Source: a virus. Taken from it: a DNA stretch of 64,000 nt. The stretch covers positions 1 to 64,000 of the IMG/VR virus record IMGVR_UViG_3300044695_005756. One strand, given 5' to 3'. Positions 27,993 to 39,817 of the stretch are shown here, one piece after another. Every line of letters begins with the position of its first letter. Position 1 is the stretch's first letter. The notes beneath the pieces were generated by a model. That model was not told the DNA's origin and made no database searches. It saw only the letters and a list, made by a program, of their open reading frames with translations. The position numbers and the translations under genes are program-made.

Positions 27993-28426
27993 GATTTAGG
28001 ATACTTTTCTTTAATTGAACGAATTTTATTTGTCATGGCAGTCATATCATCACCACCTTTCCAAATCGCATCCAACTGTTCAGCTATTGGTGGATACTCA
28101 TTTTTTCGTTTTACATAATAATCAGGAATCTCAGGTCGAACAATTTCCGATTTACTTATGTCCGCAACGGTAACTTGCCGAGACATTGGATTAGTAATTT
28201 CTCTCGTCTTTGGAGACAAATTATTCCATTCAGTTTCTTTTCTATCTATCTCAGCACATATTGCAGCTTCTTTTGATTGTATGAAACTTGTCAAATCTGT
28301 ATCTAAATTTGATGGAATAAAAATAGCCCAATCATAGACTTCTCCGTTGTGTTCTACTGTAAGTTGTGCTAATAATCGATCATCGTTGGAACCAGCAGGT
28401 CCCAAGCCAGTTATCGCAACACTCAT
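27989..28426 (-). CDS. Putative tail-fibre assembly/chaperone-like protein
   Basis: C-terminal Y..KR..EYPPI.EQLD.IW......I..IKEKYPK motif common in phage fibre clusters. Confidence 0.55.
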   Translation of the reverse strand: MSVAITGLGPAGSNDDRLLAQLTVEHNGEVYDWAIFIPSNLDTDLTSFIQSKEAAICAEIDRKETEWNNLSPKTREITNPMSRQVTVADISKSEIVRPEIPDYYVKRKNEYPPIAEQLDAIWKGGDDMTAMTNKIRSIKEKYPKS

Positions 28427-29766
28427 TTAACTGCCTCCAGTCTAAAGTTTTTACCAGGATGTTTTCCTGTTTGTGGTAATATCTTAACGTCTTTAAATCC
28501 AACAGACTTACACAAGTCTGTAAGTGTTTTTGGTGTATATCCCCATAGATGTGGATACAATGCACCTCGTTCTTCTGTTTCAGCACTCTTCTCTTCGGCT
28601 GCTGCACCAAAGATACAAGTCAGAGTCATGATTCTATCTTCATCATCTTGTTGTAGAAAATCTTGACAGAGTTCCTCAATATGTGGAGTTTCAACTACTA
28701 ACTTGCCTTTAGGCTTGAGTGTTCTGTACCAATTAGAAATAATTTCTGGCGCACGATGTTGAGGCAAATGTTCAATCAAGTGACTAGCTAAAATCTCTTC
28801 AGTAACATTTTCAGGCAAGTCCATCTTCATTACATCAATAATAATATCGGCTTCTTTACTATTCTTATCAACATTTAGATAGCCTTCAAGCTTGTCGTTG
28901 CCTGAGCCCATGTTAAATCGAATAGGTTCTTTATTCTCAATCTTATGTGCAATGATAGACTTGTAAGCGGTACCATCAGGCAGTCGATTAACCCAACGCT
29001 GATCGATGAATTCTTTATCATCCATAGTCAAGCGTCTTGTTGGTTTAATATTTGTATAGTATTTTGTCAAGTCAACTGAAGGATGCGCTGTGTACATGCC
29101 ACTAGCTAAATCCATGTGCAGACATTGAACGTCAGTATTTACAAGAAGTTTTGTTCCTCTCTTGTGTAAACGATGTACAAAGAAGTTGTCTTCACCAATA
29201 AATGGAATTTCATCATTGATGTTGTTACCGATACAGCAGAATGGAAGTTCTGGATCTTCTTCTTTCATCTTTTTCAACAGATCAACTGGAATTAACATAG
29301 CATCCATACCTGTTTGCCATGCTTCAATGATTTGTCCAGGATCAACATTTGGAATTACAATCCAATCATTTTCTCTTGTCATAATCATTGCGTCGGAACA
29401 TTTAATATAGTAAACACCAGTAACGACAGCACCAGGATTCTCTTCAGCCGTTTTCATAAGTTTTTTAAATCCATCATAAGGAAGAACTGTATCTTCACCT
29501 ACAAACAAAAGATACTTTGCTCCACTTTCAAGTGTTTGTTCAATGAGATAATTTCTTGCAACATCAACTTTTTCTCCACCAATATTACAGTAGCCGTGTG
29601 AGAAACCCATCAAATCGATATGAAGTCCATCATAACCATCAAAATTTTGTGCCGCTTTTTCATTCAAATCTCTTCTTGGTTGTGCTATGACTACATAGGG
29701 CTTAATTGTTCTTGACTCACTATAAATTTCTTTCATTGTGTCAATAATTTTATCTCTGCTATACAT
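28423..29766 (-). CDS. GT-A (GT2-like) glycosyltransferase fused to class I SAM methyltransferase
   Basis: ARN..IE..L....YLLFVGEDT, GEDNFF..RL, C.H (GT-A); RFNMGSG...GYLNVD, ASHLIEH, LKPKGKL..ETP (MTase). Confidence 0.75.
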   Translation of the reverse strand: MYSRDKIIDTMKEIYSESRTIKPYVVIAQPRRDLNEKAAQNFDGYDGLHIDLMGFSHGYCNIGGEKVDVARNYLIEQTLESGAKYLLFVGEDTVLPYDGFKKLMKTAEENPGAVVTGVYYIKCSDAMIMTRENDWIVIPNVDPGQIIEAWQTGMDAMLIPVDLLKKMKEEDPELPFCCIGNNINDEIPFIGEDNFFVHRLHKRGTKLLVNTDVQCLHMDLASGMYTAHPSVDLTKYYTNIKPTRRLTMDDKEFIDQRWVNRLPDGTAYKSIIAHKIENKEPIRFNMGSGNDKLEGYLNVDKNSKEADIIIDVMKMDLPENVTEEILASHLIEHLPQHRAPEIISNWYRTLKPKGKLVVETPHIEELCQDFLQQDDEDRIMTLTCIFGAAAEEKSAETEERGALYPHLWGYTPKTLTDLCKSVGFKDVKILPQTGKHPGKNFRLEAVK

Positions 29767-29794: not shown

Positions 29795-32700
29795 TTAAAG
29801 ATTACCATTAAAATATGCTGCTGTAACAATTCCTAAAGGAACTTCCGCTCCTGTTGAAATTTTTTGTCCTACTTCTGCATTATACGGAACGAAATGAATT
29901 TCACCATTTGGCATAAGAACACCTCCTCCATGAGCTACAAATGAATTAGTATACACTAAAGAGTATGTAGACACAATACCTGAAGCGGATATTTTTTGAC
30001 CTACAATTGCGCTGCCTGGAACAAAGTGTACGTCACCATTTGGCGCAAGAACTGCACCTTCATAATTAAATTGATTACCGTATTTTACAGGCGTGGTATA
30101 TTGTTGATTTTTAACGATAAAGACTCTTCCTAAGCCATCCGAGTATTGAAATACTAAATGTCCATCCGCGTCTATTGTAGCATTTTTACCTTGAGGATTA
30201 AAAGTACCAAAAAAAGGACCTGTATTGTAATATTCAGTAAAAAATCCATTTGGAAACATTCTTGATGGAAGAGGAGCTAAATGAGGAATAAAATAAATTG
30301 ATCCATCAGGAAGTAAAACGCTTCCCCAATTCGTGCCTCCCGTGTAATTTGTGTTTATGAGTGAATATGTTGAAACTACACCTGTTCTTGATATTTTTTG
30401 TCCAACAAGGGCTTGAAATGCAGCAAAATGAATTTCGCCATTTGGAGCAAGAGTACCTCCAATATAAGCTGATGTAGTGGTATATGCTAATGCATACGTT
30501 GATACAACTCCGCTAGCGGATACTTTTTGCCCTCTTACAGCGTTATAAGGAACAAAATGAATGTCGCCGTTTGGTGCAAGAACACCACCAGAATAAAGAT
30601 TGGGATTCGCTGCTGATGTTGTGTAAACTAATGCATATGTCGATGCAACACCATCAGCAGATATTTTTTGTCCTCTGTTTGCATTATACGGAACAAAATG
30701 AAGTTCACCATTTTGTGAAAGAACTCCACCATAATATCCAAACGAAGTAGTATATGCCAATGCATACGTTGATATTATGCCATTCACGCCGTTATTATTA
30801 AACAATGAACCTCGATCAACATTTCTTTGCAGAGTTCTGTTTAAACTTATCTCAGCTTGCTCGGAAAGGTATTGTTCTATCGATGGATTAACAAGATCAG
30901 CATAATAAGTAGTCCCATTTGCAGCTGGATAAGATGCGGTAGTATCAGTAGAAACTAAAGTACCAGGTAAAGATTTTGGTAATATTGTAGCAGTTAAAGC
31001 TTTTTTCGCTTTTGTGAAAACTGTTTGTCGTGATATGAGTTCGTATTTTCCAATTCCTAACGAATAACCAACGGGAACAAGTGATTGAGGATAAATTGAA
31101 CTGGCATATGGAATAACATTTGAAGTGTCTGAAGAATCATGCGCTCGTCTTATAAGGACATTTGGTTTATTGACCAGCTTCATCCCATATCGCTGAGTAG
31201 TTTGTTGAATAAAATACACATCTCCAGATTCGGAAAGAACGCCTCCTTGATGAATACGCTGCAATATCGGATACGTTGATATTACACCAGCGGATGATAT
31301 TTTTTGACCGACTTGTGCGGAATCTGGAACAAAATGAACATCGCCTCGACTATCAAGAACACCACCACGGTATGCACCACTTCCAGAGGTAATTACTAAT
31401 GAATACGTCGATACTACACCAGCGGATGATAATTTTTGTCCTCTGTTGGCAAAATAAGGAACAAAATGAGTGTCACCATTTGGTGCAAGAACACCACCCC
31501 AATAAGACGCACCAGCGGTATACACTAATGAATATGTCGATGTAACACCATCAGCAGATATTTTTTGTCCAACTCTTGCACTATAAGGAACAAAGTGTAC
31601 GTCACCGTTTGGCGCAAGAACACCACCTTGATAAGCAGTAGCAGTTGTGTATACCAACGAATATGTTGAAACATAAATGGGCACACTTTCGTTAGTTAAT
31701 AATTTCTGGCCTCTATTTGCATTGAAAGGCACAAACTGAACATCTCCACTAACATCAAGAACACCACCAGCATATGCAGCGGCTGTTGTGTACGCTAATG
31801 AATATGTTTGTACGATTCCATCGGAAAATATTTTTTGTCCTACTCTTGCAGAATCTGGAACAAAATGAATACTGCCATTACCGTCAAGAACACCGCCATC
31901 ATATGCAGCGGTTGTTGTGTACGCTAATGAATATGTTGTAGGATATTGAGATAAAAATTTATTGAACTCTATAACTTGTCCAACTTCTGCTTCATATGGA
32001 GCAAGATAAAAGGTGTTGCCTGTACTATCCATGGCACCACCAAGGTATGGCTGATTGGAAGCTGTGTATGCTAATGCGTATGTTGATACAACACCATCAG
32101 AAGAAACTTTTTGTCCTACTTTTGCATTATAAGGTGCAAAATGTATATCTCCATTATATGCTTTTCCGCCATAAGCATATGCACTAGAAGTTGTGTATAC
32201 TAATGAATATGTAGACACGACACCAGCAGAAGAAACTTTTTGCCCTCTGTTTGCAAGGAGTGGCACAAAATGTATATCTCCGTTGTTATCAAGAACACCA
32301 CCCGAATATGCAGCAGTAGTAGTATACACCAATGAATATGTTGATACAACACCAGCAGAAGAAACTTTTTGCCCTCTGATCGCACTATAAGGAACAAAAT
32401 GAACATCGCCGTTACTATCAAGAACACCACCTCGATAAGCACCAGAAATCGTATATACCAACGAATATGTTGATATGATACCAGCGGATGATATTTTTTG
32501 TCCTCTTGTGGCAGAAAAAGGCACGAAATGAATGTCGCCATTGTTATCAAGAACACCACCATTGTATGCGGAACCAGCGGTTAATACTAATGAGTATGTC
32601 GATACGACACCAGCAGAAGAAACTTTTTGTCCAACTCTTGCACTAAAATTTACAAAATGAATATCACCATTGTTATCTAAAACGCCACCTTCATACGCAT

Positions 32701-34150
32701 TAGTAACTGTATGAACCAATGAAAATGTTGATACTACGCCAGCAGACGATATTTTTTGTCCTCTGTTAGCATCATTGGGTATAAAATACACATCACCATT
32801 ATTATCAAGAACGCCTCCAGCATATGCACCACCAGACGTTGTATATACTAATGAGTAAGTTGTAGGATAGTGTTCAAGTGTGACATCAAATTGTAACTTT
32901 TGTCCTACTCTTGCACTAAAAGGTACAAAATGTGCTTCGTTATTGTTATTTAAAACACCGCCATCATATGCAGCAGAAGCGGTAGTATATGCTAATGCAT
33001 ATGTTGACACAACTCCTGACGATGAAATTTTTTGCCCTCTAGCGGCACTAAGCGGAATAAAATGTACATCGCCATTCGGTGCAAGAATACCGCCAGCGTA
33101 TGCAGTAATAGATGTGTATACTAATGAATACGTCGATACTACACCAGCAGATGATAGTTTTTGTCCTATATCCGCATTATAAGGAACAAAATGTATATCA
33201 TCGTTATTATCTAAAATACCTCCTTTATACTTCGCAAGAGCGGTACTGTTTACTAAAGAGTATGTTGTTATAACACCAGCAGACGATATTTTTTGTCCTA
33301 TGACAGCATTAAAGGGCACAAAATGAATATCGTTATTACTATCTAAAACACCACCGTTATATGCATTAGTAGCTGTATACACCAATGAAAATGTTGACAC
33401 GACACCAGCAGACGATATTGTTAGTCCTCTATTTGCATTATAATTTACAAAATAAATGTCGTTATTATTTGCAAGAACACCACCAGAATATGCACCAGCA
33501 GTTGTATATACTAACGAATACGTTGATGGAACTTGAGGTGCGAATCCATTTGGAGTTACTTTTTGTCCTCTGTTTGAATTATATGGCACAAAATATACAT
33601 CGCCATTCGGTGCAAGAACACCACCAGAATATCCAAAATTAGACGTTGTGAATATTAATGAGTAAGTTGTTATAACACCAGCAGATGATATCATTTGTCC
33701 TCTAGTGGCATTCCGAGGCACAAAATGTATATTACCAAGAGCGTCTAGAACTGCTGCACTCCAAAAATTAGCTCCAGATACTGAATAAGGATAAGTAAAT
33801 ACTGTACCATCTGTTGTTATTCTTATTCCTCTATCACCATCTACATTTACAATATGAATTTCATTATTGCTGGTGCGAACTGCTCCCGCAAGCTCACTAA
33901 CAGAGACAGAGGCTGTGCGGAGTGCATCATTATATGAATGAAGAACTTGAGGATAATCTACAAGAGTTGCTGTACCTACTTCCCATTTATCACCATCGAC
34001 AATTGAATAGTCAAACTCATCACCCATTGAATAGGTTGCAGCAGAAATTTTTTCGACATTGGCCGAACTCAATCTTATATTGGGTTCGAACGCATCTTCA
34101 CGCTGTGAAAAAGTACCTGTTTGTGATCTATCTTTTACTTGGCGTGCCAT
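29795..34150 (-). CDS. Beta-propeller repeat virion/adhesin protein, 28 blades
   Basis: ~43-aa repeat STYSLVYTxxxAYxGGVLxxNGDVHFVPxxAxxGQKISSAGVV, 21 + 7 copies. Confidence 0.75.
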   Translation of the reverse strand: MARQVKDRSQTGTFSQREDAFEPNIRLSSANVEKISAATYSMGDEFDYSIVDGDKWEVGTATLVDYPQVLHSYNDALRTASVSVSELAGAVRTSNNEIHIVNVDGDRGIRITTDGTVFTYPYSVSGANFWSAAVLDALGNIHFVPRNATRGQMISSAGVITTYSLIFTTSNFGYSGGVLAPNGDVYFVPYNSNRGQKVTPNGFAPQVPSTYSLVYTTAGAYSGGVLANNNDIYFVNYNANRGLTISSAGVVSTFSLVYTATNAYNGGVLDSNNDIHFVPFNAVIGQKISSAGVITTYSLVNSTALAKYKGGILDNNDDIHFVPYNADIGQKLSSAGVVSTYSLVYTSITAYAGGILAPNGDVHFIPLSAARGQKISSSGVVSTYALAYTTASAAYDGGVLNNNNEAHFVPFSARVGQKLQFDVTLEHYPTTYSLVYTTSGGAYAGGVLDNNGDVYFIPNDANRGQKISSAGVVSTFSLVHTVTNAYEGGVLDNNGDIHFVNFSARVGQKVSSAGVVSTYSLVLTAGSAYNGGVLDNNGDIHFVPFSATRGQKISSAGIISTYSLVYTISGAYRGGVLDSNGDVHFVPYSAIRGQKVSSAGVVSTYSLVYTTTAAYSGGVLDNNGDIHFVPLLANRGQKVSSAGVVSTYSLVYTTSSAYAYGGKAYNGDIHFAPYNAKVGQKVSSDGVVSTYALAYTASNQPYLGGAMDSTGNTFYLAPYEAEVGQVIEFNKFLSQYPTTYSLAYTTTAAYDGGVLDGNGSIHFVPDSARVGQKIFSDGIVQTYSLAYTTAAAYAGGVLDVSGDVQFVPFNANRGQKLLTNESVPIYVSTYSLVYTTATAYQGGVLAPNGDVHFVPYSARVGQKISADGVTSTYSLVYTAGASYWGGVLAPNGDTHFVPYFANRGQKLSSAGVVSTYSLVITSGSGAYRGGVLDSRGDVHFVPDSAQVGQKISSAGVISTYPILQRIHQGGVLSESGDVYFIQQTTQRYGMKLVNKPNVLIRRAHDSSDTSNVIPYASSIYPQSLVPVGYSLGIGKYELISRQTVFTKAKKALTATILPKSLPGTLVSTDTTASYPAANGTTYYADLVNPSIEQYLSEQAEISLNRTLQRNVDRGSLFNNNGVNGIISTYALAYTTSFGYYGGVLSQNGELHFVPYNANRGQKISADGVASTYALVYTTSAANPNLYSGGVLAPNGDIHFVPYNAVRGQKVSASGVVSTYALAYTTTSAYIGGTLAPNGEIHFAAFQALVGQKISRTGVVSTYSLINTNYTGGTNWGSVLLPDGSIYFIPHLAPLPSRMFPNGFFTEYYNTGPFFGTFNPQGKNATIDADGHLVFQYSDGLGRVFIVKNQQYTTPVKYGNQFNYEGAVLAPNGDVHFVPGSAIVGQKISASGIVSTYSLVYTNSFVAHGGGVLMPNGEIHFVPYNAEVGQKISTGAEVPLGIVTAAYFNGNL

Positions 34151-34153
34151 GTC

Positions 34154-37100
34154 TTATAACTTATTGAAAAATGGACTGAGAACAATTTCTGTATCCAATG
34201 GTCGACTAAATGTGTATAGTTTGTACTGAGTTGCATCATTACGAATCGCAATTATGTTTCCATCAAAATCTAAATTTGCTCCAATACAAAGTGGTGTTCC
34301 AGAAATCAAAGGTGATGTGATTAACGATTGTATGCCAGAAGGCGTAATTTTTAAAATACCTGATGTTCCATTATAAGGAACAAAGTATATGTTTCCTGCT
34401 GGATCTAAAACACCACTTTGAAAAGCACCAGCAGTTGTGTATACTAATGAATATGTAGACACAACACCAGCAGCAGAAACTTTTTGCCCTATAGTTGCAG
34501 AATGAGGCACAAAATGCACATCGCCATTTGGTGCAAGAACACCACCAACGTAAGCATCGGCAGCAGTATATACTAAAGAGTATGTAGACACAATACCTGA
34601 AGCGGATATTTTTTGACCTACGATTGCGTTGCCTGGTACAAAATGCACATCGCCATTTGGTGCAAGAACACCACCAGCATATGTATCAGCAGCAGTATAT
34701 ACTAATGAATATGTTGATACAACACCAGCAGCAGAAACTTTTTGTCCGACTATCGCGTTGCGTGGAACAAAGTGAATATCACCATTTGATGCAAAGATGC
34801 CACCAATATATGCTAAAGATGTTGTGTAAACTAATGCATATGTCGATACAACACCAGCAGCAGATATTTTTTGCCCTACTGTTGCGTTACACGGAACGAA
34901 ATGAACATCACCATTCGATGCAAGAACACCACCAGCATATGCATAATTAGCCGTTGTGTACACCAATGCATATGTTGATACTGCACCGTATTGAGATATT
35001 TTTTGACCTCTGTTAGCACTATCTGGAACAAAATGAATATCACCATTAAGTGCAAGAACACCACCCCAGTATGCACTAGCAGTTGTGTATACTAATGAAA
35101 ATGTAGACACTACAGGATTTTTAAATGTTGTTCCTGCCGTAATACTCTTCATCCACGCTCTTTGAAGTCCTCTCCAAGAAGTCAACGTGGAATTAATTGA
35201 TGAATCATCTCCTGTTGGAACAGCGCCTTGCACAACACTTGAAGGTAACGGTATGAATACGTCTTTTATTCCTGATGAAAAATTCACTTTGTCTGGAACA
35301 TTGGCAGTTACATTAGATGATGAAATGACTAAATCTCTACTCAATGTTGAAGCAAGTCTTTGTCCAACTGTTGATCCAAAAGGAACAAAATGTAATTCAC
35401 CTTGTTTATCAATAACACCACCGTTATATGCTAAACTGCCAGTCGAAGTAAGTGGATAAGTTGATACGACACCAGCAAGAGATATTTTTTGTCCAATTCC
35501 AGAATCGTAAGGAATAAAATGAACTTCTCCATCGCGTGTTTGAATACCGCCACGATAGGCAGTACTGCCTGTATTTACCAATGAATACGTTGATACAACA
35601 CCGTATTGAGATATTTTTTGTCCGACTGTCGCACTACTTGGCACAAAATGCACATCGCCGTTTCGTGCAAGGACACCACCGTCATATGCGCCAACAGTCG
35701 TATACACAAGTGAATAAGTTGATACGACACCAGCAAGAGATATTTTTTGTCCTCTGATAGCGTTATTTGGTATAAAATGTACATCACCGTTTGGCGCAAG
35801 AACACCACCAGCGTATGCACCAGCTGCGGTAGTATATACTAATGAATATGTTGATACTACACCAGCTGATGATAATTTTTGCCCCCTATTACCGACAAAA
35901 GGAACAAAATGAACATCGCCGTTACTATCAAGAACACCACCTCGATAAGCAGTAGCAGTTGTGTATACCAACGAATATGTTGAAGAAAATATTGAGAAAA
36001 ATTTGTTAAACTCCGCTACTTGTCCTACTGTAGCAGAAGAAGGAACAAATTGTAATTTATTTTGGCCGTCTAGAACACCACCATTGTAATGTCCAGGTGA
36101 AGTTCGTACTAATGTATATGTCGATACAACGCCAGCAGATGATATTTTCTGTCCTCTTGTAACACCATTTTGCACAAAATGTACATCGCCTCGACTATCA
36201 AGGACACCACCACGATATGCACCACCTCCAGAAGTAATTACTAATGAATATGTTGATACTACACCAGCGGATGATAATTTTTGTCCTACTCTTGCTTCAT
36301 AGTTTACAAAATGTATATCACCTCGACTATCAAGAACACCGCCGGAAAAAGAGCGAACTGTGGTATACACCAATGAATATGTTGATACTACACCAGCAGA
36401 AGATACTTTTTGTCCTCTGTTTGCACTAAAAGGAATAAAATGAACGTCACCATTTCTGTCTAATACTCCACCAGAATATGCAAAAGATGCCGTATATACT
36501 AATGGGTATGTATAAGTGCCAAACTGATCCAACTTTAGTCCTACTCTTGCATTATAAGGAACAAAATAAATGTTTCCATTGCCATCATAAACACCTCCAT
36601 CATAAGCACCGCCAACAGTATATGCTAAATCATAAGTTGATGCGACACCAAGGTAATTCACTTTTTGTCCTATGTCGGCATTATAAGGAACAAAATGAGT
36701 ATCGCCTAAAAAAAGTCCATCAAATACTCCTCCAGAATATGCATTCAAAGTGGTGTACACCAAATCATAAGTTGATACAACACCAGCAGATGATATCATC
36801 TGTCCTACAGACGCATTAAAAGGAGCGAAATGAATATCCTTTCTATCATTCAAAGCACCACCTTGATACGCTAAAGACACGGTGTAAACTAAAGGATATG
36901 TGCTAGAATAAACTTCGGGCGTGATATCGAACTGTAACTTTTGTCCTATACCAACACTATAAGGAATAAAATGCATTTCACCAAGACGATTTACTACACC
37001 CTCAAAATATGCACTATCAGCGGTATGCGCCAATGAGTATGTTGATACAACGCCGTATTGAGATATTTTTTGACCGACTTCCGCACTATAAGGAACAAAA

Positions 37101-37381
37101 TGAACGTCAGCATTTCCTGAAATAGTTGGCGCAAGAACACCGCCTGCATAACCATTTCCAGTTGTGTACACTAATGAATATGTTACAGGAACTTGATACA
37201 TTGATACTGTTCCTATTCCAACCTCAAAAGCATTTCGATCTTCGATTGTGTAATAAGTTTGATTATTATGACATACGTTCGCAAATGATTGATAACCTGA
37301 AACTGCGTAATCAAGTGTTACGTTTCCTGTTCCAGTTGTATTTGTTGTGACGAACGCTCTATCTAAAGCAACAAAAGCCAT
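34154..37381 (-). CDS. Beta-propeller repeat virion/adhesin protein, 21 blades
   Basis: Same repeat, 14 + 7 copies; N-terminus DR...T.TTGTG..TL..AV.G.QSF...YYTI....EVGIGT. Confidence 0.75.
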   Translation of the reverse strand: MAFVALDRAFVTTNTTGTGNVTLDYAVSGYQSFANVCHNNQTYYTIEDRNAFEVGIGTVSMYQVPVTYSLVYTTGNGYAGGVLAPTISGNADVHFVPYSAEVGQKISQYGVVSTYSLAHTADSAYFEGVVNRLGEMHFIPYSVGIGQKLQFDITPEVYSSTYPLVYTVSLAYQGGALNDRKDIHFAPFNASVGQMISSAGVVSTYDLVYTTLNAYSGGVFDGLFLGDTHFVPYNADIGQKVNYLGVASTYDLAYTVGGAYDGGVYDGNGNIYFVPYNARVGLKLDQFGTYTYPLVYTASFAYSGGVLDRNGDVHFIPFSANRGQKVSSAGVVSTYSLVYTTVRSFSGGVLDSRGDIHFVNYEARVGQKLSSAGVVSTYSLVITSGGGAYRGGVLDSRGDVHFVQNGVTRGQKISSAGVVSTYTLVRTSPGHYNGGVLDGQNKLQFVPSSATVGQVAEFNKFFSIFSSTYSLVYTTATAYRGGVLDSNGDVHFVPFVGNRGQKLSSAGVVSTYSLVYTTAAGAYAGGVLAPNGDVHFIPNNAIRGQKISLAGVVSTYSLVYTTVGAYDGGVLARNGDVHFVPSSATVGQKISQYGVVSTYSLVNTGSTAYRGGIQTRDGEVHFIPYDSGIGQKISLAGVVSTYPLTSTGSLAYNGGVIDKQGELHFVPFGSTVGQRLASTLSRDLVISSSNVTANVPDKVNFSSGIKDVFIPLPSSVVQGAVPTGDDSSINSTLTSWRGLQRAWMKSITAGTTFKNPVVSTFSLVYTTASAYWGGVLALNGDIHFVPDSANRGQKISQYGAVSTYALVYTTANYAYAGGVLASNGDVHFVPCNATVGQKISAAGVVSTYALVYTTSLAYIGGIFASNGDIHFVPRNAIVGQKVSAAGVVSTYSLVYTAADTYAGGVLAPNGDVHFVPGNAIVGQKISASGIVSTYSLVYTAADAYVGGVLAPNGDVHFVPHSATIGQKVSAAGVVSTYSLVYTTAGAFQSGVLDPAGNIYFVPYNGTSGILKITPSGIQSLITSPLISGTPLCIGANLDFDGNIIAIRNDATQYKLYTFSRPLDTEIVLSPFFNKL

Positions 37382-37390
37382 AATTTTTCT

Positions 37391-39817
37391 TTAAAGTTTG
37401 TTTAAAAATGGACTAAGACAAGCATTTACAGGCAAAGGATTAACCGAAAGCGTTGCAATTTTTTGTCCTACTACACCAGAAAAAGGTGCGAAGTATATAT
37501 CACCGTTTGGCATAAGCGCACCACCGATATACGCACTTGCAACAACATACGGCAATGAGTATGTAGACACAACTCCAGAAGTGGATATTTTTTGACCTCT
37601 GTTGGCAGCAAATGGTATAAAATGTACATCACCGTTTGGCGCAAGAACACCACCAGCATATGCAGTAGCGACAGTATAAACAAGTGGATATGTCGATACA
37701 GCGCCATCAGCAGATATTTTTTGTCCTCTGTTTGCTGAATGAGGCACAAAATTTATGTCGCCATTAACTGCAAGAACACCACCAAGATACGCAGCAGCAA
37801 TACTGTACACTAATGAATATGTAGACACGACACCAGCGGCAGAAATTTTTTGTCCTCTGTTTGCATTAAATGGCACAAAGTGTACGTCACCGTTTGGCGC
37901 AAGAACACCACCAGCATATGCGGTAGTGGCTGTGTATATCAACGAATAAGTCGATACGACACCAGATGACGATATCATTTGTCCTCTGTTAGCTGAGTAA
38001 GGTACAAAATGTATGTCGCCGTTCGGAGAAACAACGCCTCCAACGTAAGCATCGGCAGCAGTATATACTAAGGAGTATGTTGACACAACGCCTGAAGCAT
38101 TTATTTTTTGACCTCTGTTAGCACTTCGCGGCACAAAATGTACATCACCGTTTGGTGCAAGAATACCGCCATAATACGCATTAGCGACTGTATGTAATAA
38201 AACATAAGTGGATGGAATACCCAACTTCGAAAGTTTTTGTCCTCTTACAGCGGAATGTGGCACAAAGTGTGTGTCACCATTTGGTGCAAGAATTGCTCCA
38301 GCATATCCAGAAGCAACAGTATATGGTAATGTAAATGTTGATGCGATACCAGCAGTATTCGCATTATCGTATGCATTTCCACCTAAAGCACTCTGTTCCA
38401 ATAAACCTCTAAATGGTTTCCATCCTGATAAATTAGAATCGATTTCATTATTATCAAATGTTGGTACTCCACCGACAGCAATCGAATTTGGATATACGAG
38501 TGAAATGTTTGCCGATGTAGTTAGATTGCTAGGCGATAGATAAATTGCTTGTCCGTTGTTCGATGAATCGAAAATTTTATCTCTTGTAATCGCATTTACT
38601 AAAACTCTTTGTGCTGCCGTAGCACTATGATTTGCAAATATAATTCCAATGTCATTGTTTGATGACAACGCTCCACCAAATAAACCAGCGGTTGATGTTA
38701 CTGCTAATGAATATGTGGTAAATATACCTAAACTTTGATCATATACAGTACCTACTCTTGCGCTATACGGAACAAAGTGAACATTACCATTTCTGTCCAA
38801 TACTCCGCCGGCATATGCATTTGTTGTTGTATAAGGTAATGGATATGTGGAACTTGAGACTAACGCAAGCATAACTGACGCATTATATGGAATACAATAT
38901 ACTTCACCAGGATAATTAGCAGAGAATGATCTCACTACGCCACCAATATATGCACCCGCTGTTGTGTACGGAAGACCATAAGTGGTTGCAATAAAATTGG
39001 CCATGTATTGCCCTACTTGTGCATTGAATGGAACAAAGTAGTTTCCGCCATTAACAGTATATCCACCTTGATATGCGCCTGCAGTAGTATATGCTAACGC
39101 CCAAGTTGATGCAATTGTATTAGTAGTGTCAATTGTTTGTCCTACCGCTGCGTTATACGGAACAAAATGAATATAGTAAGGATATGTGACTGTATCGACA
39201 ATTCCACCAGAATATGCACCAGCAACTGTGTATGCTAAAGAGTATGTTGACACAATACCTGCCGATGATACTTTTTGTCCTCTGTTGGCATTATAAGGAA
39301 TAAAATGTACTTCATTATCCCCACCAAGAACACCGCCCTGATATGCACCAGCAACTGTGTATGTTAATGGATATGTTGATACAACACCTGCCGATGATAC
39401 TTTTTGTCCTCTTGTGGCAGAAAAAGGCACGAAATGAATGTCGCCATTAGCGTCACGAACTGCTCCAGAATACGCTGTAGTTGCGGTTGCGGTAACGGCA
39501 AATGTTGAAACTATTGGAGATTTTCCGCGGTATGTTGCTTTTCCTATTTCCCATTCACCATTTTTAGGCTCAAGAGAATAATAAAACTCACTATTAAGAC
39601 TTCCCGAATAATCATTATCTACAAAAGCAAAATTTTTATATCCTGCAATCGTATAAGGTTTATACCCACTATAAGCTGGAATTCGTTCGTTATCGGTAAA
39701 GTTAGAAAAGTTTAAACCATCAGGATTTACTGGAGATGGTGTGTTCGCAAGAACCAGTGTTGAATTGCCACCAGAAAAAGTATTTCCACGTGTTCTACTA
39801 TTAAAAATTATCGTCAT
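37391..39817 (-). CDS. Beta-propeller repeat virion/adhesin protein, 14 blades
   Basis: Same repeat, 7 + 7 copies; ends LSPFLNKL like the paralog's LSPFFNKL. Confidence 0.75.
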   Translation of the reverse strand: MTIIFNSRTRGNTFSGGNSTLVLANTPSPVNPDGLNFSNFTDNERIPAYSGYKPYTIAGYKNFAFVDNDYSGSLNSEFYYSLEPKNGEWEIGKATYRGKSPIVSTFAVTATATTAYSGAVRDANGDIHFVPFSATRGQKVSSAGVVSTYPLTYTVAGAYQGGVLGGDNEVHFIPYNANRGQKVSSAGIVSTYSLAYTVAGAYSGGIVDTVTYPYYIHFVPYNAAVGQTIDTTNTIASTWALAYTTAGAYQGGYTVNGGNYFVPFNAQVGQYMANFIATTYGLPYTTAGAYIGGVVRSFSANYPGEVYCIPYNASVMLALVSSSTYPLPYTTTNAYAGGVLDRNGNVHFVPYSARVGTVYDQSLGIFTTYSLAVTSTAGLFGGALSSNNDIGIIFANHSATAAQRVLVNAITRDKIFDSSNNGQAIYLSPSNLTTSANISLVYPNSIAVGGVPTFDNNEIDSNLSGWKPFRGLLEQSALGGNAYDNANTAGIASTFTLPYTVASGYAGAILAPNGDTHFVPHSAVRGQKLSKLGIPSTYVLLHTVANAYYGGILAPNGDVHFVPRSANRGQKINASGVVSTYSLVYTAADAYVGGVVSPNGDIHFVPYSANRGQMISSSGVVSTYSLIYTATTAYAGGVLAPNGDVHFVPFNANRGQKISAAGVVSTYSLVYSIAAAYLGGVLAVNGDINFVPHSANRGQKISADGAVSTYPLVYTVATAYAGGVLAPNGDVHFIPFAANRGQKISTSGVVSTYSLPYVVASAYIGGALMPNGDIYFAPFSGVVGQKIATLSVNPLPVNACLSPFLNKL

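Follow-up and report, generated by a model that had tools for sequence, protein, structure and literature searches.

Long off-phase connections in blade arrays of T4-like phage proteins and the possible nesting of seven-bladed beta-propellers

Three paralogous proteins (P0001, P0002, and P0003) encoded in the 64,000-nucleotide stretch of viral DNA analyzed here (the window; IMG/VR record IMGVR_UViG_3300044695_005756) appear to display four, three, and two seven-bladed propellers of the virginiamycin B lyase (Vgb lyase) type, respectively. The extra propellers of P0001 and P0002 may be nested within one another through a swap of D strands rather than strung in series. This reading is given not quite an even chance, and the logic of the sequences slightly favors it over consecutive rings. 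Nesting would economically explain both the arithmetic of the blades and a conserved pair of linkers (KLQFD/EFNKF), and we infer the swap topology itself. The nested topology is unproven, and it did not emerge from either of two structure predictions.

The open reading frames that a preliminary description had named for P0001 and P0002 are both present as claimed (Table 1). All three paralogs match the Pfam family PF24684 (Vgb_lyase), at 123.1, 65.9, and 82.3 bits for P0001, P0002, and P0003, respectively (gathering cut-off 50). Blades were counted with a blade HMM derived from 30 clean examples of 43 aa each. P0003 was used as the baseline for the series and has the canonical layout, in which an N-terminal domain is followed by seven blades, a non-repeat segment of ~90 aa, and another seven blades. 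P0002 has 14+7 blades: an N-terminal domain (residues 1–66), 14 contiguous blades, ~80 aa of non-repeat sequence, and a C-terminal seven-bladed propeller. P0001 has 21+7 blades (27 direct matches and one degenerate C-terminal blade read by eye), with 21 contiguous blades after the N-terminal domain, ~135 aa of non-repeat sequence, and a C-terminal seven-bladed propeller that carries an insertion.

The three genes lie in a baseplate/fiber module of a metagenome-derived T4-like myovirus and are flanked by baseplate-wedge genes and fiber-like genes. More generally, the neighboring genes form a virion structural module (baseplate wedge, tail fiber-like, sheath, portal, and major capsid genes). No PHROG of known function matched the propeller proteins themselves. 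This genomic context suggests that P0001, P0002, and P0003 are fiber or adhesin proteins of the virion. The phage proteins share the blade family and the seven-bladed ring with virginiamycin B (streptogramin B) lyase (2Z2N/2Z2O/2QC5; PF24684). However, the enzyme is a single ring rather than an array of blades, and sequence identity between the enzyme and the phage rings is only 14–18%. At this level of identity, and with blades that are near-consensus repeats, the phage rings are unlikely to have the asymmetric active site of an enzyme. The propellers probably serve to bind carbohydrates or surfaces, not as enzymes.

Table 1. Locations of the propeller genes, blade arrays, and long connections in the window.
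Feature	Location	Strand	Basis
P0001, 1451-aa protein	29795..34150	(-)	ORF call, translation, Pfam, blade HMM
P0002, 1075-aa protein	34154..37381	(-)	ORF call, translation, Pfam, blade HMM
P0003, 808-aa paralog of P0001/P0002, canonical layout	37391..39817	(-)	Pfam, blade HMM
21-blade array of P0001 (~residues 71-990)	31181..33940	(-)	blade HMM
14-blade array of P0002 (residues 67-677)	35351..37183	(-)	blade HMM
P0001 C-terminal seven-bladed propeller	29831..30769	(-)	blade HMM
P0002 C-terminal seven-bladed propeller	34202..35104	(-)	Pfam + blade HMM
Long C-to-D connection after P0001 blade 3, KVTPNG type, proline-rich	33527..33562	(-)	translation, blade HMM
Long C-to-D connection after P0001 blade 8, KLQFD type	32864..32899	(-)	translation, blade HMM
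Long C-to-D connection after P0001 blade 15, EFNKF type	31940..31975	(-)	translation, blade HMM
Long C-to-D connection after P0001 blade 17, KLLTNES type	31670..31705	(-)	translation, blade HMM
Long C-to-D connection after P0002 blade 2, KLQFD type	36905..36940	(-)	translation, blade HMM
Long C-to-D connection after P0002 blade 9, EFNKF type	35984..36019	(-)	translation, blade HMM
Proposed innermost ring of P0001 (blades 9-15), flanked by the KLQFD/EFNKF pair	31976..32860	(-)	colinear with P0002 blades 3-9
Proposed inner ring of P0002 (blades 3-9), flanked by the KLQFD/EFNKF pair	36020..36901	(-)	blade HMM, colinearity

Blades in the P0001 and P0002 arrays are usually spaced 43–45 aa apart. 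The spacing rises to 47–49 aa after blades 3, 8, 15, and 17 of P0001 and, in P0002, after blades 2 and 9; the other exception is blade 1, which has an internal insertion in each protein. All six long connections sit between strand C (GQK motif) and strand D (STYSL motif), exceed the standard connection by four residues, and have Asp or Asn at one common position. These are the six linkers of the preliminary description, recovered at the motifs it quoted with coordinates within one base, and they split the arrays as it had counted, into 2, 7, and 5 blades in P0002 and 3, 5, 7, 2, and 4 blades in P0001. The connections thus pair up in a properly nested manner, at distances of 7 and 14 blades, with flanking blades that sum to seven. 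By our own count, random placement would set a pair exactly seven apart in 6/78 cases in a 14-blade array, and four linkers would give any well-formed nest in 51/4845 cases in a 21-blade array. These counts alone do not prove nesting, because homologous linkers in duplicated rings would also lie multiples of seven apart.

The pairing of a KLQFD-type with an EFNKF-type linker around seven blades, also pointed out in the preliminary description, is present in both proteins. Between P0001 and P0002, the KLQFD-type linkers are identical at 7/12 positions and the EFNKF-type linkers likewise at 7/12, and the two types are unlike each other. The bracketed seven blades start after blade 2 in P0002 and after blade 8 in P0001, and the two arrays are colinear at this six-blade offset (mean blade identity 59.5%, compared with 47–56% at other offsets). 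The A-B-C units directly before the KLQFD and EFNKF linkers rank among the most divergent blades, as do the closing blades of canonical rings. In comparison, both proteins have a consensus-like blade 7, P0001 diverges only mildly at blade 14, and the 7/8 and 14/15 connections are of fully standard length.

Among ~270 relatives, almost every contiguous run of blades has seven, with 192 runs of exactly this number. The two rings predicted with AlphaFold2 for blades 4–17 of P0001, which are models rather than experimental structures, match the closed seven-blade ring of the Vgb_lyase type end to end. The sole other long arrays are those of P0006–P0008, metagenomic proteins of 1345–1361 aa that resemble P0001 in having 21 contiguous blades (blade identity 43–49%). 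Unlike P0001 and P0002, they have a C-terminal domain of ~460 aa and in-phase, serial 7-7-7 linkers, with the extended C-to-D connections exactly at 7/8 and 14/15. In the remaining two-ring relatives, the gap between rings is ~85 aa or more. The lengthened 7/8 and 14/15 connections of the serial arrays and the wide spacing in two-ring relatives indicate that, in this family, the chain always leaves a ring through a long C-to-D connection.

In the proposed mechanism, whole rings would have been inserted recursively between strands C and D of a blade belonging to another ring, at one level in P0002 and at two levels in P0001, with a reciprocal swap of D strands and a conserved linker pair; this scheme is judged a shade less probable than nesting itself. 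The Vgb-type sequence repeat runs from strand D through A, B, and C, and 'velcro' closure of a ring joins the first D strand to the last A-B-C unit. On reaching a long linker, the chain would depart from the host ring with an A-B-C unit still lacking its D strand. It would then form seven blades of its own, closed as a ring by pairing of their first D strand with their last A-B-C unit. The chain would come back via the partner linker to the host ring, where the next D strand would fill the interrupted blade. The resulting layouts would be 2+[7]+5 in P0002 and 3+[5+[7]+2]+4 in P0001. Each junction would be equivalent to a D-strand swap between two abutting blades, for which a few extra residues should suffice, and the linkers supply four. 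With entry and exit of the module on one blade, rings could be added without shifting the N-terminal domain, the non-repeat segment, or the C-terminal propeller. The two-stranded arm of stacked propellers envisaged in the preliminary description finds no support in anything tested. The junctions of the middle ring would be two blades apart in the nested model, and a bent chain of rings rather than a straight stack is therefore expected.

Consecutive rings (7+7 in P0002 and 7+7+7 in P0001), the arrangement of all multi-propeller proteins known to us, are a somewhat less probable explanation. The connections with four added residues would then be enlarged hairpins or loops between strands C and D that ring duplication passed on to equivalent blades, perhaps serving as contact sites for ligands or subunits. 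The linkers are alike in their added length and in the position of Asp/Asn, and QFD aligns with EFN, which is compatible with homologous loops. Duplication of whole rings would likewise place them multiples of seven apart. Furthermore, the WRAP domain of Nostoc punctiforme Npun_R6612 (PDB 2YMU) has 14 near-identical blades with uniform connections that form two seven-bladed propellers (10.1101/723619). It resembles the phage arrays in being one chain of 14 very similar blades and differs in belonging to the WD40 family and in having no off-phase linkers. By this precedent, a ring boundary does not strictly require a special linker. However, serial boundaries in P0001 and P0002 would fall at the standard tight hairpins 7/8 and 14/15, which the serial relatives always lengthen. 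The ring position of the linker pair would differ between the paralogs (2 in one, 1 in the other), although the arrays are homologous and colinear, and the KLQFD and EFNKF types are far less alike than the homogenized blades around them. In addition, a triplicated ring would need to have shed two hairpins in a way that happens to look nested, as 3/15 of the possible ways do by our own count.

Structure predictions bear on both readings. The preliminary description had expected AlphaFold models to show blades closing non-consecutively, and had regarded linear closure or rings without seven blades as contrary evidence. Neither of two AlphaFold2 models is nested, which by that reasoning speaks against nesting. 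For P0001 blades 4–17, two consecutive seven-bladed rings were predicted (mean pLDDT 80.2). Ring 1 (model residues 8–319) and ring 2 (319–625) each superpose on a whole virginiamycin B lyase (Z 32.9 over 295/295 residues and Z 32.5 over 291/293 residues, respectively; matches 2Z2O and 2Z2P, rmsd 2.2–2.4 A). Both linkers are loops within rings in this model, with pLDDT of ~74 for KLQFD and <50 for EFNKF, and pLDDT is also <50 at the standard connection that acts as the ring boundary. This prediction, with its two serial Vgb-like rings and looped linkers, favors consecutive rings. However, its phase was fixed by the chosen cut of the construct, and the rings formed (blades 4–10 and 11–17) differ from the phase of a full-length serial arrangement (1–7, 8–14, and 15–21).

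For residues 1–700 of P0002, AlphaFold2 returned a nine-blade ring plus five blades (mean pLDDT 69.7, pTM 0.53) and so missed the 7+7 arrangement, although this was available. The best structural match of this model is the designed Cake10/Cake9 (Z 29.6, 357 residues aligned, model residues 64–458). The KLQFD linker forms an extended hairpin, as consecutive rings would have it. At the EFNKF linker, pLDDT is <50, the chain is broken, and the next D strand is not formed and stays unpaired. Nesting would require blades 2 and 10 of P0002 to be neighbors and blades 3 and 9 to close on each other, contacts that appear in neither of these low-depth, mutually inconsistent models; their absence is therefore weak evidence. 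Each model is weakest at its ring junctions. The break at the P0002 EFNKF linker and the low-pLDDT standard boundary in the P0001 model were counted for nesting. Taken together, the models are not decisive, because they disagree on the EFNKF linker as a ring boundary, the 9+5 split breaks the strict seven-blade rule of the family, the construct cut set the serial phase, and the underlying alignments are shallow (just 9–10 rows, without usable covariation).

Two further arrangements are much less plausible. In one, the chain of P0001 would exit a ring only at the two proline-rich linkers, those that follow blades 3 and 17, giving 3+[7][7]+4 with two serial rings inside a split outer ring; the KLQFD and EFNKF linkers would be hairpins, and P0002 would be a plain 7+7. 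The KVTPNG-type linker has three prolines and would make a poor hairpin, and the inner part of P0001, cut at the proline-rich linkers, was modeled as 7+7. However, the boundaries chosen for that construct already impose 3+[7][7]+4, and two different roles would be given to connections of equal length and position, which makes this combination improbable. Rings of other sizes, with the EFNKF linker as the sole true boundary (e.g., 9+5 in P0002, as in the AlphaFold2 model), are the least probable of all: identical blades have been reported to form oligomeric propellers of varied blade number (10.1101/723619), but the same rule would make P0001 15+6, the P0002 model has low confidence and an unpaired D strand, and 9+5 was rejected as the likely fold in this strictly seven-bladed family.

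Searches for further off-phase arrays point to a single lineage. Among 1.84 billion representative proteins, HMMER found none save one 87%-identical orthologue fragment (L008/L135), on a contig that stops within the gene; L008 keeps the EFNKF and KLLTNES linkers of P0001. A word search of 5.8 billion proteins gave no further off-phase array. In viral contigs, DNA patterns of the EFNKF and KLQFD linkers led to no off-phase array beyond this fragment, nor did the unique segment between the P0001 propellers retrieve anything else. The same DNA patterns gave no new off-phase array among the matches listed for metagenome contigs. In these searches, the pattern of off-phase linkers appears in one lineage only and so has no comparative replication. 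Cultured phages gave no megablast match, and tblastn found only two Cylindrospermopsis phages (32–34% identity over one ring). A sequence search of the PDB matched only Vgb lyases. Position-specific blade HMMs from 190 canonical seven-blade runs gave no usable signal of ring phase in P0001, P0002, or the serial P0006–P0008; the closing blade alone was weakly recognizable (53/95 held-out cases). Similarly, blade-by-blade comparison of the P0003 N-terminal ring with the P0001 and P0002 arrays showed no orthology signal, because the blades are homogenized.

The preliminary description knew of no account of such an architecture, and literature searches for a propeller within a propeller agreed with this, giving none. 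No solved structure in which whole blades of one propeller flank another was found in the literature searched. Two kinds of known structure are partial parallels. Strand-level 'clasp' closures of tandem propellers occur in GH74 xyloglucanases, Apaf-1, and Aip1. As in the nested model, a ring is completed non-contiguously, by a strand placed after or before the second ring. However, the contribution is a single strand rather than two to five entire blades, and the nesting is not known to extend to a second level. The other parallel is domain insertion: the integrin alpha I domain sits between propeller blades 2 and 3. In the muzzle protein of crAss-like phages, the IG1 domain is inserted between the same two blades (PMC10172136). 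Both cases share with the nested model a whole domain between blades around which the ring closes, but the insert is not a propeller of the same family. We know of no recursion in domain insertions into propellers.

If the rings are serial, P0001 and P0002 would represent just an unusually long and regular family of multi-propeller fibers with conserved long hairpins, of moderate interest only. If nesting is true, it would be a topology absent from any solved structure found in the literature searched and, to our knowledge, the first case of propellers inserted blade-wise and recursively into one another. For the growth of repeat proteins, it would mean that a duplication need not be in phase with the ring to yield a product capable of folding. 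Two further implications would concern how far structure predictors can cope with repeat arrays and how branched multi-ring scaffolds might be designed. For the phage, nesting would provide a modular route to more binding rings that leaves the anchor and the distal propeller unmoved. The series of paralogs with two, three, and four rings suggests tunable multivalent recognition of hosts in an uncultured relative of marine T4-like cyanophages.

The window derives from a 94.5-kb IMG/VR virus record with an estimated completeness of about 51%. Around the propeller region, PHROG matches identify a major head protein, a portal, a sheath, a large terminase, a baseplate wedge, and tail-fibre-like genes, and the major capsid protein shares 64% identity with its counterparts in the T4-like cyanophages P-TIM40, P-RSM6, and S-H38. 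Based on these neighbors and the capsid protein identity, the sequence points to a T4-like myovirus, uncultured and akin to the marine cyanomyoviruses. Three propeller paralogs (P0001, P0002, and P0003) are encoded head to tail. In the adjacent 450-aa protein, an 11-residue repeat resembling HANSGFIQANS occurs ~15 times, alongside a C-terminal domain that is not repetitive. Pfam gives no match for this protein and PHROG just a weak one ('toxin', E 1.8e-4); it is probably a fibre shaft. At the other end of the cluster, a fusion of an N-terminal GT2-like glycosyltransferase and a C-terminal SAM methyltransferase may modify fibres.

Coordinates of the propeller genes and their neighbors in the window
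Feature	Position	Strand	Remarks
Giant structural ORF, 2412 aa	19748-26986	minus	tail-fibre PHROG matches; flanks propeller cluster
Glycosyltransferase-methyltransferase fusion	28423-29766	minus	immediately downstream of propeller genes, within structural operon
Propeller paralog P0001, 1451 aa	29795-34150	minus	
Propeller paralog P0002, 1075 aa	34154-37381	minus	
Propeller paralog P0003, 808 aa	37391-39817	minus	
Fibre-like repeat protein, 450 aa	39827-41179	minus	directly upstream of propeller genes
Giant structural ORF, 2133 aa	42773-49174	minus	phrog_358 (unknown function); flanks propeller cluster

All three paralogs match the Pfam family PF24684 (virginiamycin B lyase family, seven-bladed propellers). 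A blade HMM trained on 30 clean 43-aa blades revealed one common plan, which includes an N-terminal domain (66–105 aa), a first propeller module, a conserved non-repeat segment (80–135 aa), a C-terminal propeller of seven blades, and a short conserved tail. The first module contains 7, 14, and 21 contiguous blades in P0003, P0002, and P0001, respectively. Within each sequence repeat, the strand order is D, A, B, C. Canonical rings have neither an A-B-C unit before the first D strand nor a D strand after the last A-B-C unit, which is the usual 'velcro' closure. At the DNA level, blade families with a 129-nt period and 60–85% identity extend across all three genes (29795-39817), a pattern consistent with continuing exchange between blades.

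Blade spacing in P0001 and P0002 is 43–45 aa except for six connections of 47–49 aa, located after blades 2 and 9 of P0002 and after blades 3, 8, 15, and 17 of P0001. Spacing thus recovered the same six connections that the preliminary description had located by linker motifs, at matching coordinates: KLQFD (after blade 2 of P0002 and blade 8 of P0001), EFNKF (after blades 9 and 15, respectively), and, in P0001, KVTPNG (after blade 3) and KLLTNES (after blade 17). All six join strand C to strand D and carry Asp or Asn at one common position; compared with the standard tight hairpin, they have four additional residues and lack its conserved glycine. Between the two paralogs, 7 of 12 residues are identical in the KLQFD type and likewise in the EFNKF type, and the two types are unlike each other. 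Because of these identities and the colinearity of the two arrays at a six-blade offset, the KLQFD/EFNKF pair is older than the paralog split. As had been claimed, this pair brackets exactly seven blades in both genes. At the C-termini of P0002 and P0003 (~34154-34180 and ~37391-37417), the conserved tail of the canonical proteins closes with F-(F/L)-N-K-L, which has F-N-K in common with the E-F-N-K-F linker after the proposed inner ring. In that linker, F-N-K could be coincidental, or a vestige of the tail that an inserted C-terminal-type propeller brought along.

These linkers had been taken to indicate propellers inserted inside one another, as 2+[7]+5 in P0002 and 3+[5+[7]+2]+4 in P0001. 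We tentatively favor such nested rings without regarding them as probable, and they remain slightly ahead of consecutive rings (7+7 and 7+7+7). The two folds would differ solely in the two long connections, which would either form hairpins or swap between a pair of abutting blades. In a swap, the chain would skip one strand position, which would take about four extra residues by geometric estimate. Every standard tight hairpin would stay intact, and the KLQFD/EFNKF pair would play one role in P0001 and P0002 alike. Like closing blades, the units preceding the KLQFD and EFNKF linkers have diverged, whereas blade 7 is close to the consensus. This is a soft point for nesting, because repeats beside any interruption tend to diverge. 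The linker counts themselves do not strongly discriminate between the readings, since ring duplication, passing linkers on at equivalent blades, would likewise space them at multiples of seven.

Consecutive rings, with the long connections as hairpins, are a substantial possibility of somewhat lower likelihood. The WRAP domain of Nostoc punctiforme Npun_R6612 (PDB 2YMU) is a natural 14-blade array in which the blades are nearly identical and the connections uniform, and its solved structure shows two seven-bladed propellers (10.1101/723619); rings in series are therefore physically possible without special linkers. However, for the chain to pass from one ring to the next, this arrangement requires a fully standard hairpin at blades 7/8 (and 14/15) to open; it also leaves four to six lengthened connections without a topological role, and the ring position of the KLQFD/EFNKF pair would be 2 in one paralog and 1 in the other. 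Moreover, truly serial relatives lengthen exactly the boundary connections. In the ~270 relatives collected, a count of exactly seven blades was obtained for 192 contiguous runs. Apart from P0001 and P0002, long arrays occur only in three metagenomic 21-blade proteins (P0006–P0008; 1345–1361 aa), whose extended C-to-D linkers fall precisely at blades 7/8 and 14/15. These three have 21 blades from the very start, in phase as 7+7+7, followed by a conserved ~460-aa non-repeat domain, and thus differ from the window paralogs in the mounting of the same blades. Other two-ring relatives have ~85 aa or more between rings. Among 1.84 billion representatives, searched with long arrays expected at the top of the ranking, no further proteins with off-phase linkers were found except for one orthologue fragment 87% identical to P0001 (11401-14040 of viral contig IMGVR_UViG_3300020183_000446). 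This contig stops within the propeller gene. The fragment keeps the EFNKF and KLLxNES linkers; behind it come the same glycosyltransferase-methyltransferase gene as in the window and a 2113-aa fibre.

AlphaFold2 models, proposed earlier as a check of nested closure, gave other arrangements. For P0002 (residues 1–700, 9-row alignment; mean pLDDT 69.7, pTM 0.53), the model shows the KLQFD linker as an extended hairpin; at the EFNKF linker pLDDT is <50, and the next D strand is unformed. The designed propellers Cake10 and Cake9 are its best structural matches (Z 29.6, 357 residues aligned, model residues 64–458). Because structural alignment places blades 1–9 in one ring, this model is assigned as 9+5 blades. 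For P0001 residues 197–828 (blades 4–17, the proposed 5+[7]+2; mean pLDDT 80.2, pTM 0.55), confidence is low at one standard connection (construct residues 317–321) and at the EFNKF linker. The entire virginiamycin B lyase fits onto the model at two places, residues 8–319 (Z 32.9, 295/295 residues aligned) and 319–625 (Z 32.5), so this model is read as consecutive rings of blades 4–10 and 11–17, with both linkers as intra-ring loops. The preliminary description had named linear closure or non-seven blade numbers as contrary outcomes, and by this measure both models count against nesting. As evidence on nesting the models are weak, because they treat the EFNKF linker oppositely (one has it as a boundary, the other as a loop), the 9+5 split breaks the seven-blade rule of the family, the cut of the P0001 construct set a serial phase unlike that of a serial full-length protein, and the alignments lack covariation able to show non-local blade contacts. 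Structure predictors also favor sequence-local packing in repeat arrays. A hybrid arrangement, 3+[7][7]+4, is improbable, and rings of other sizes, represented by the 9+5 model and at odds with the seven-blade rule, are more improbable still.

Literature searches found no description of one propeller's whole blades flanking another propeller. Because insertions of other domains between propeller blades and single-strand clasps are both known, a nested architecture, if real, would be a variation on known multi-propeller and domain-insertion themes. It would be striking if true. The first propeller module has its entry and exit on one blade. A single split anchor domain might be formed by the N-terminal domain together with the non-repeat segment, an idea that fits the general insertion theme. 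Taken together, the genomic setting, the progression from 2 to 3 to 4 rings, and the lack of an asymmetry like that of enzymes suggest that these propellers act as multivalent binding modules of a fibre attached to the baseplate.
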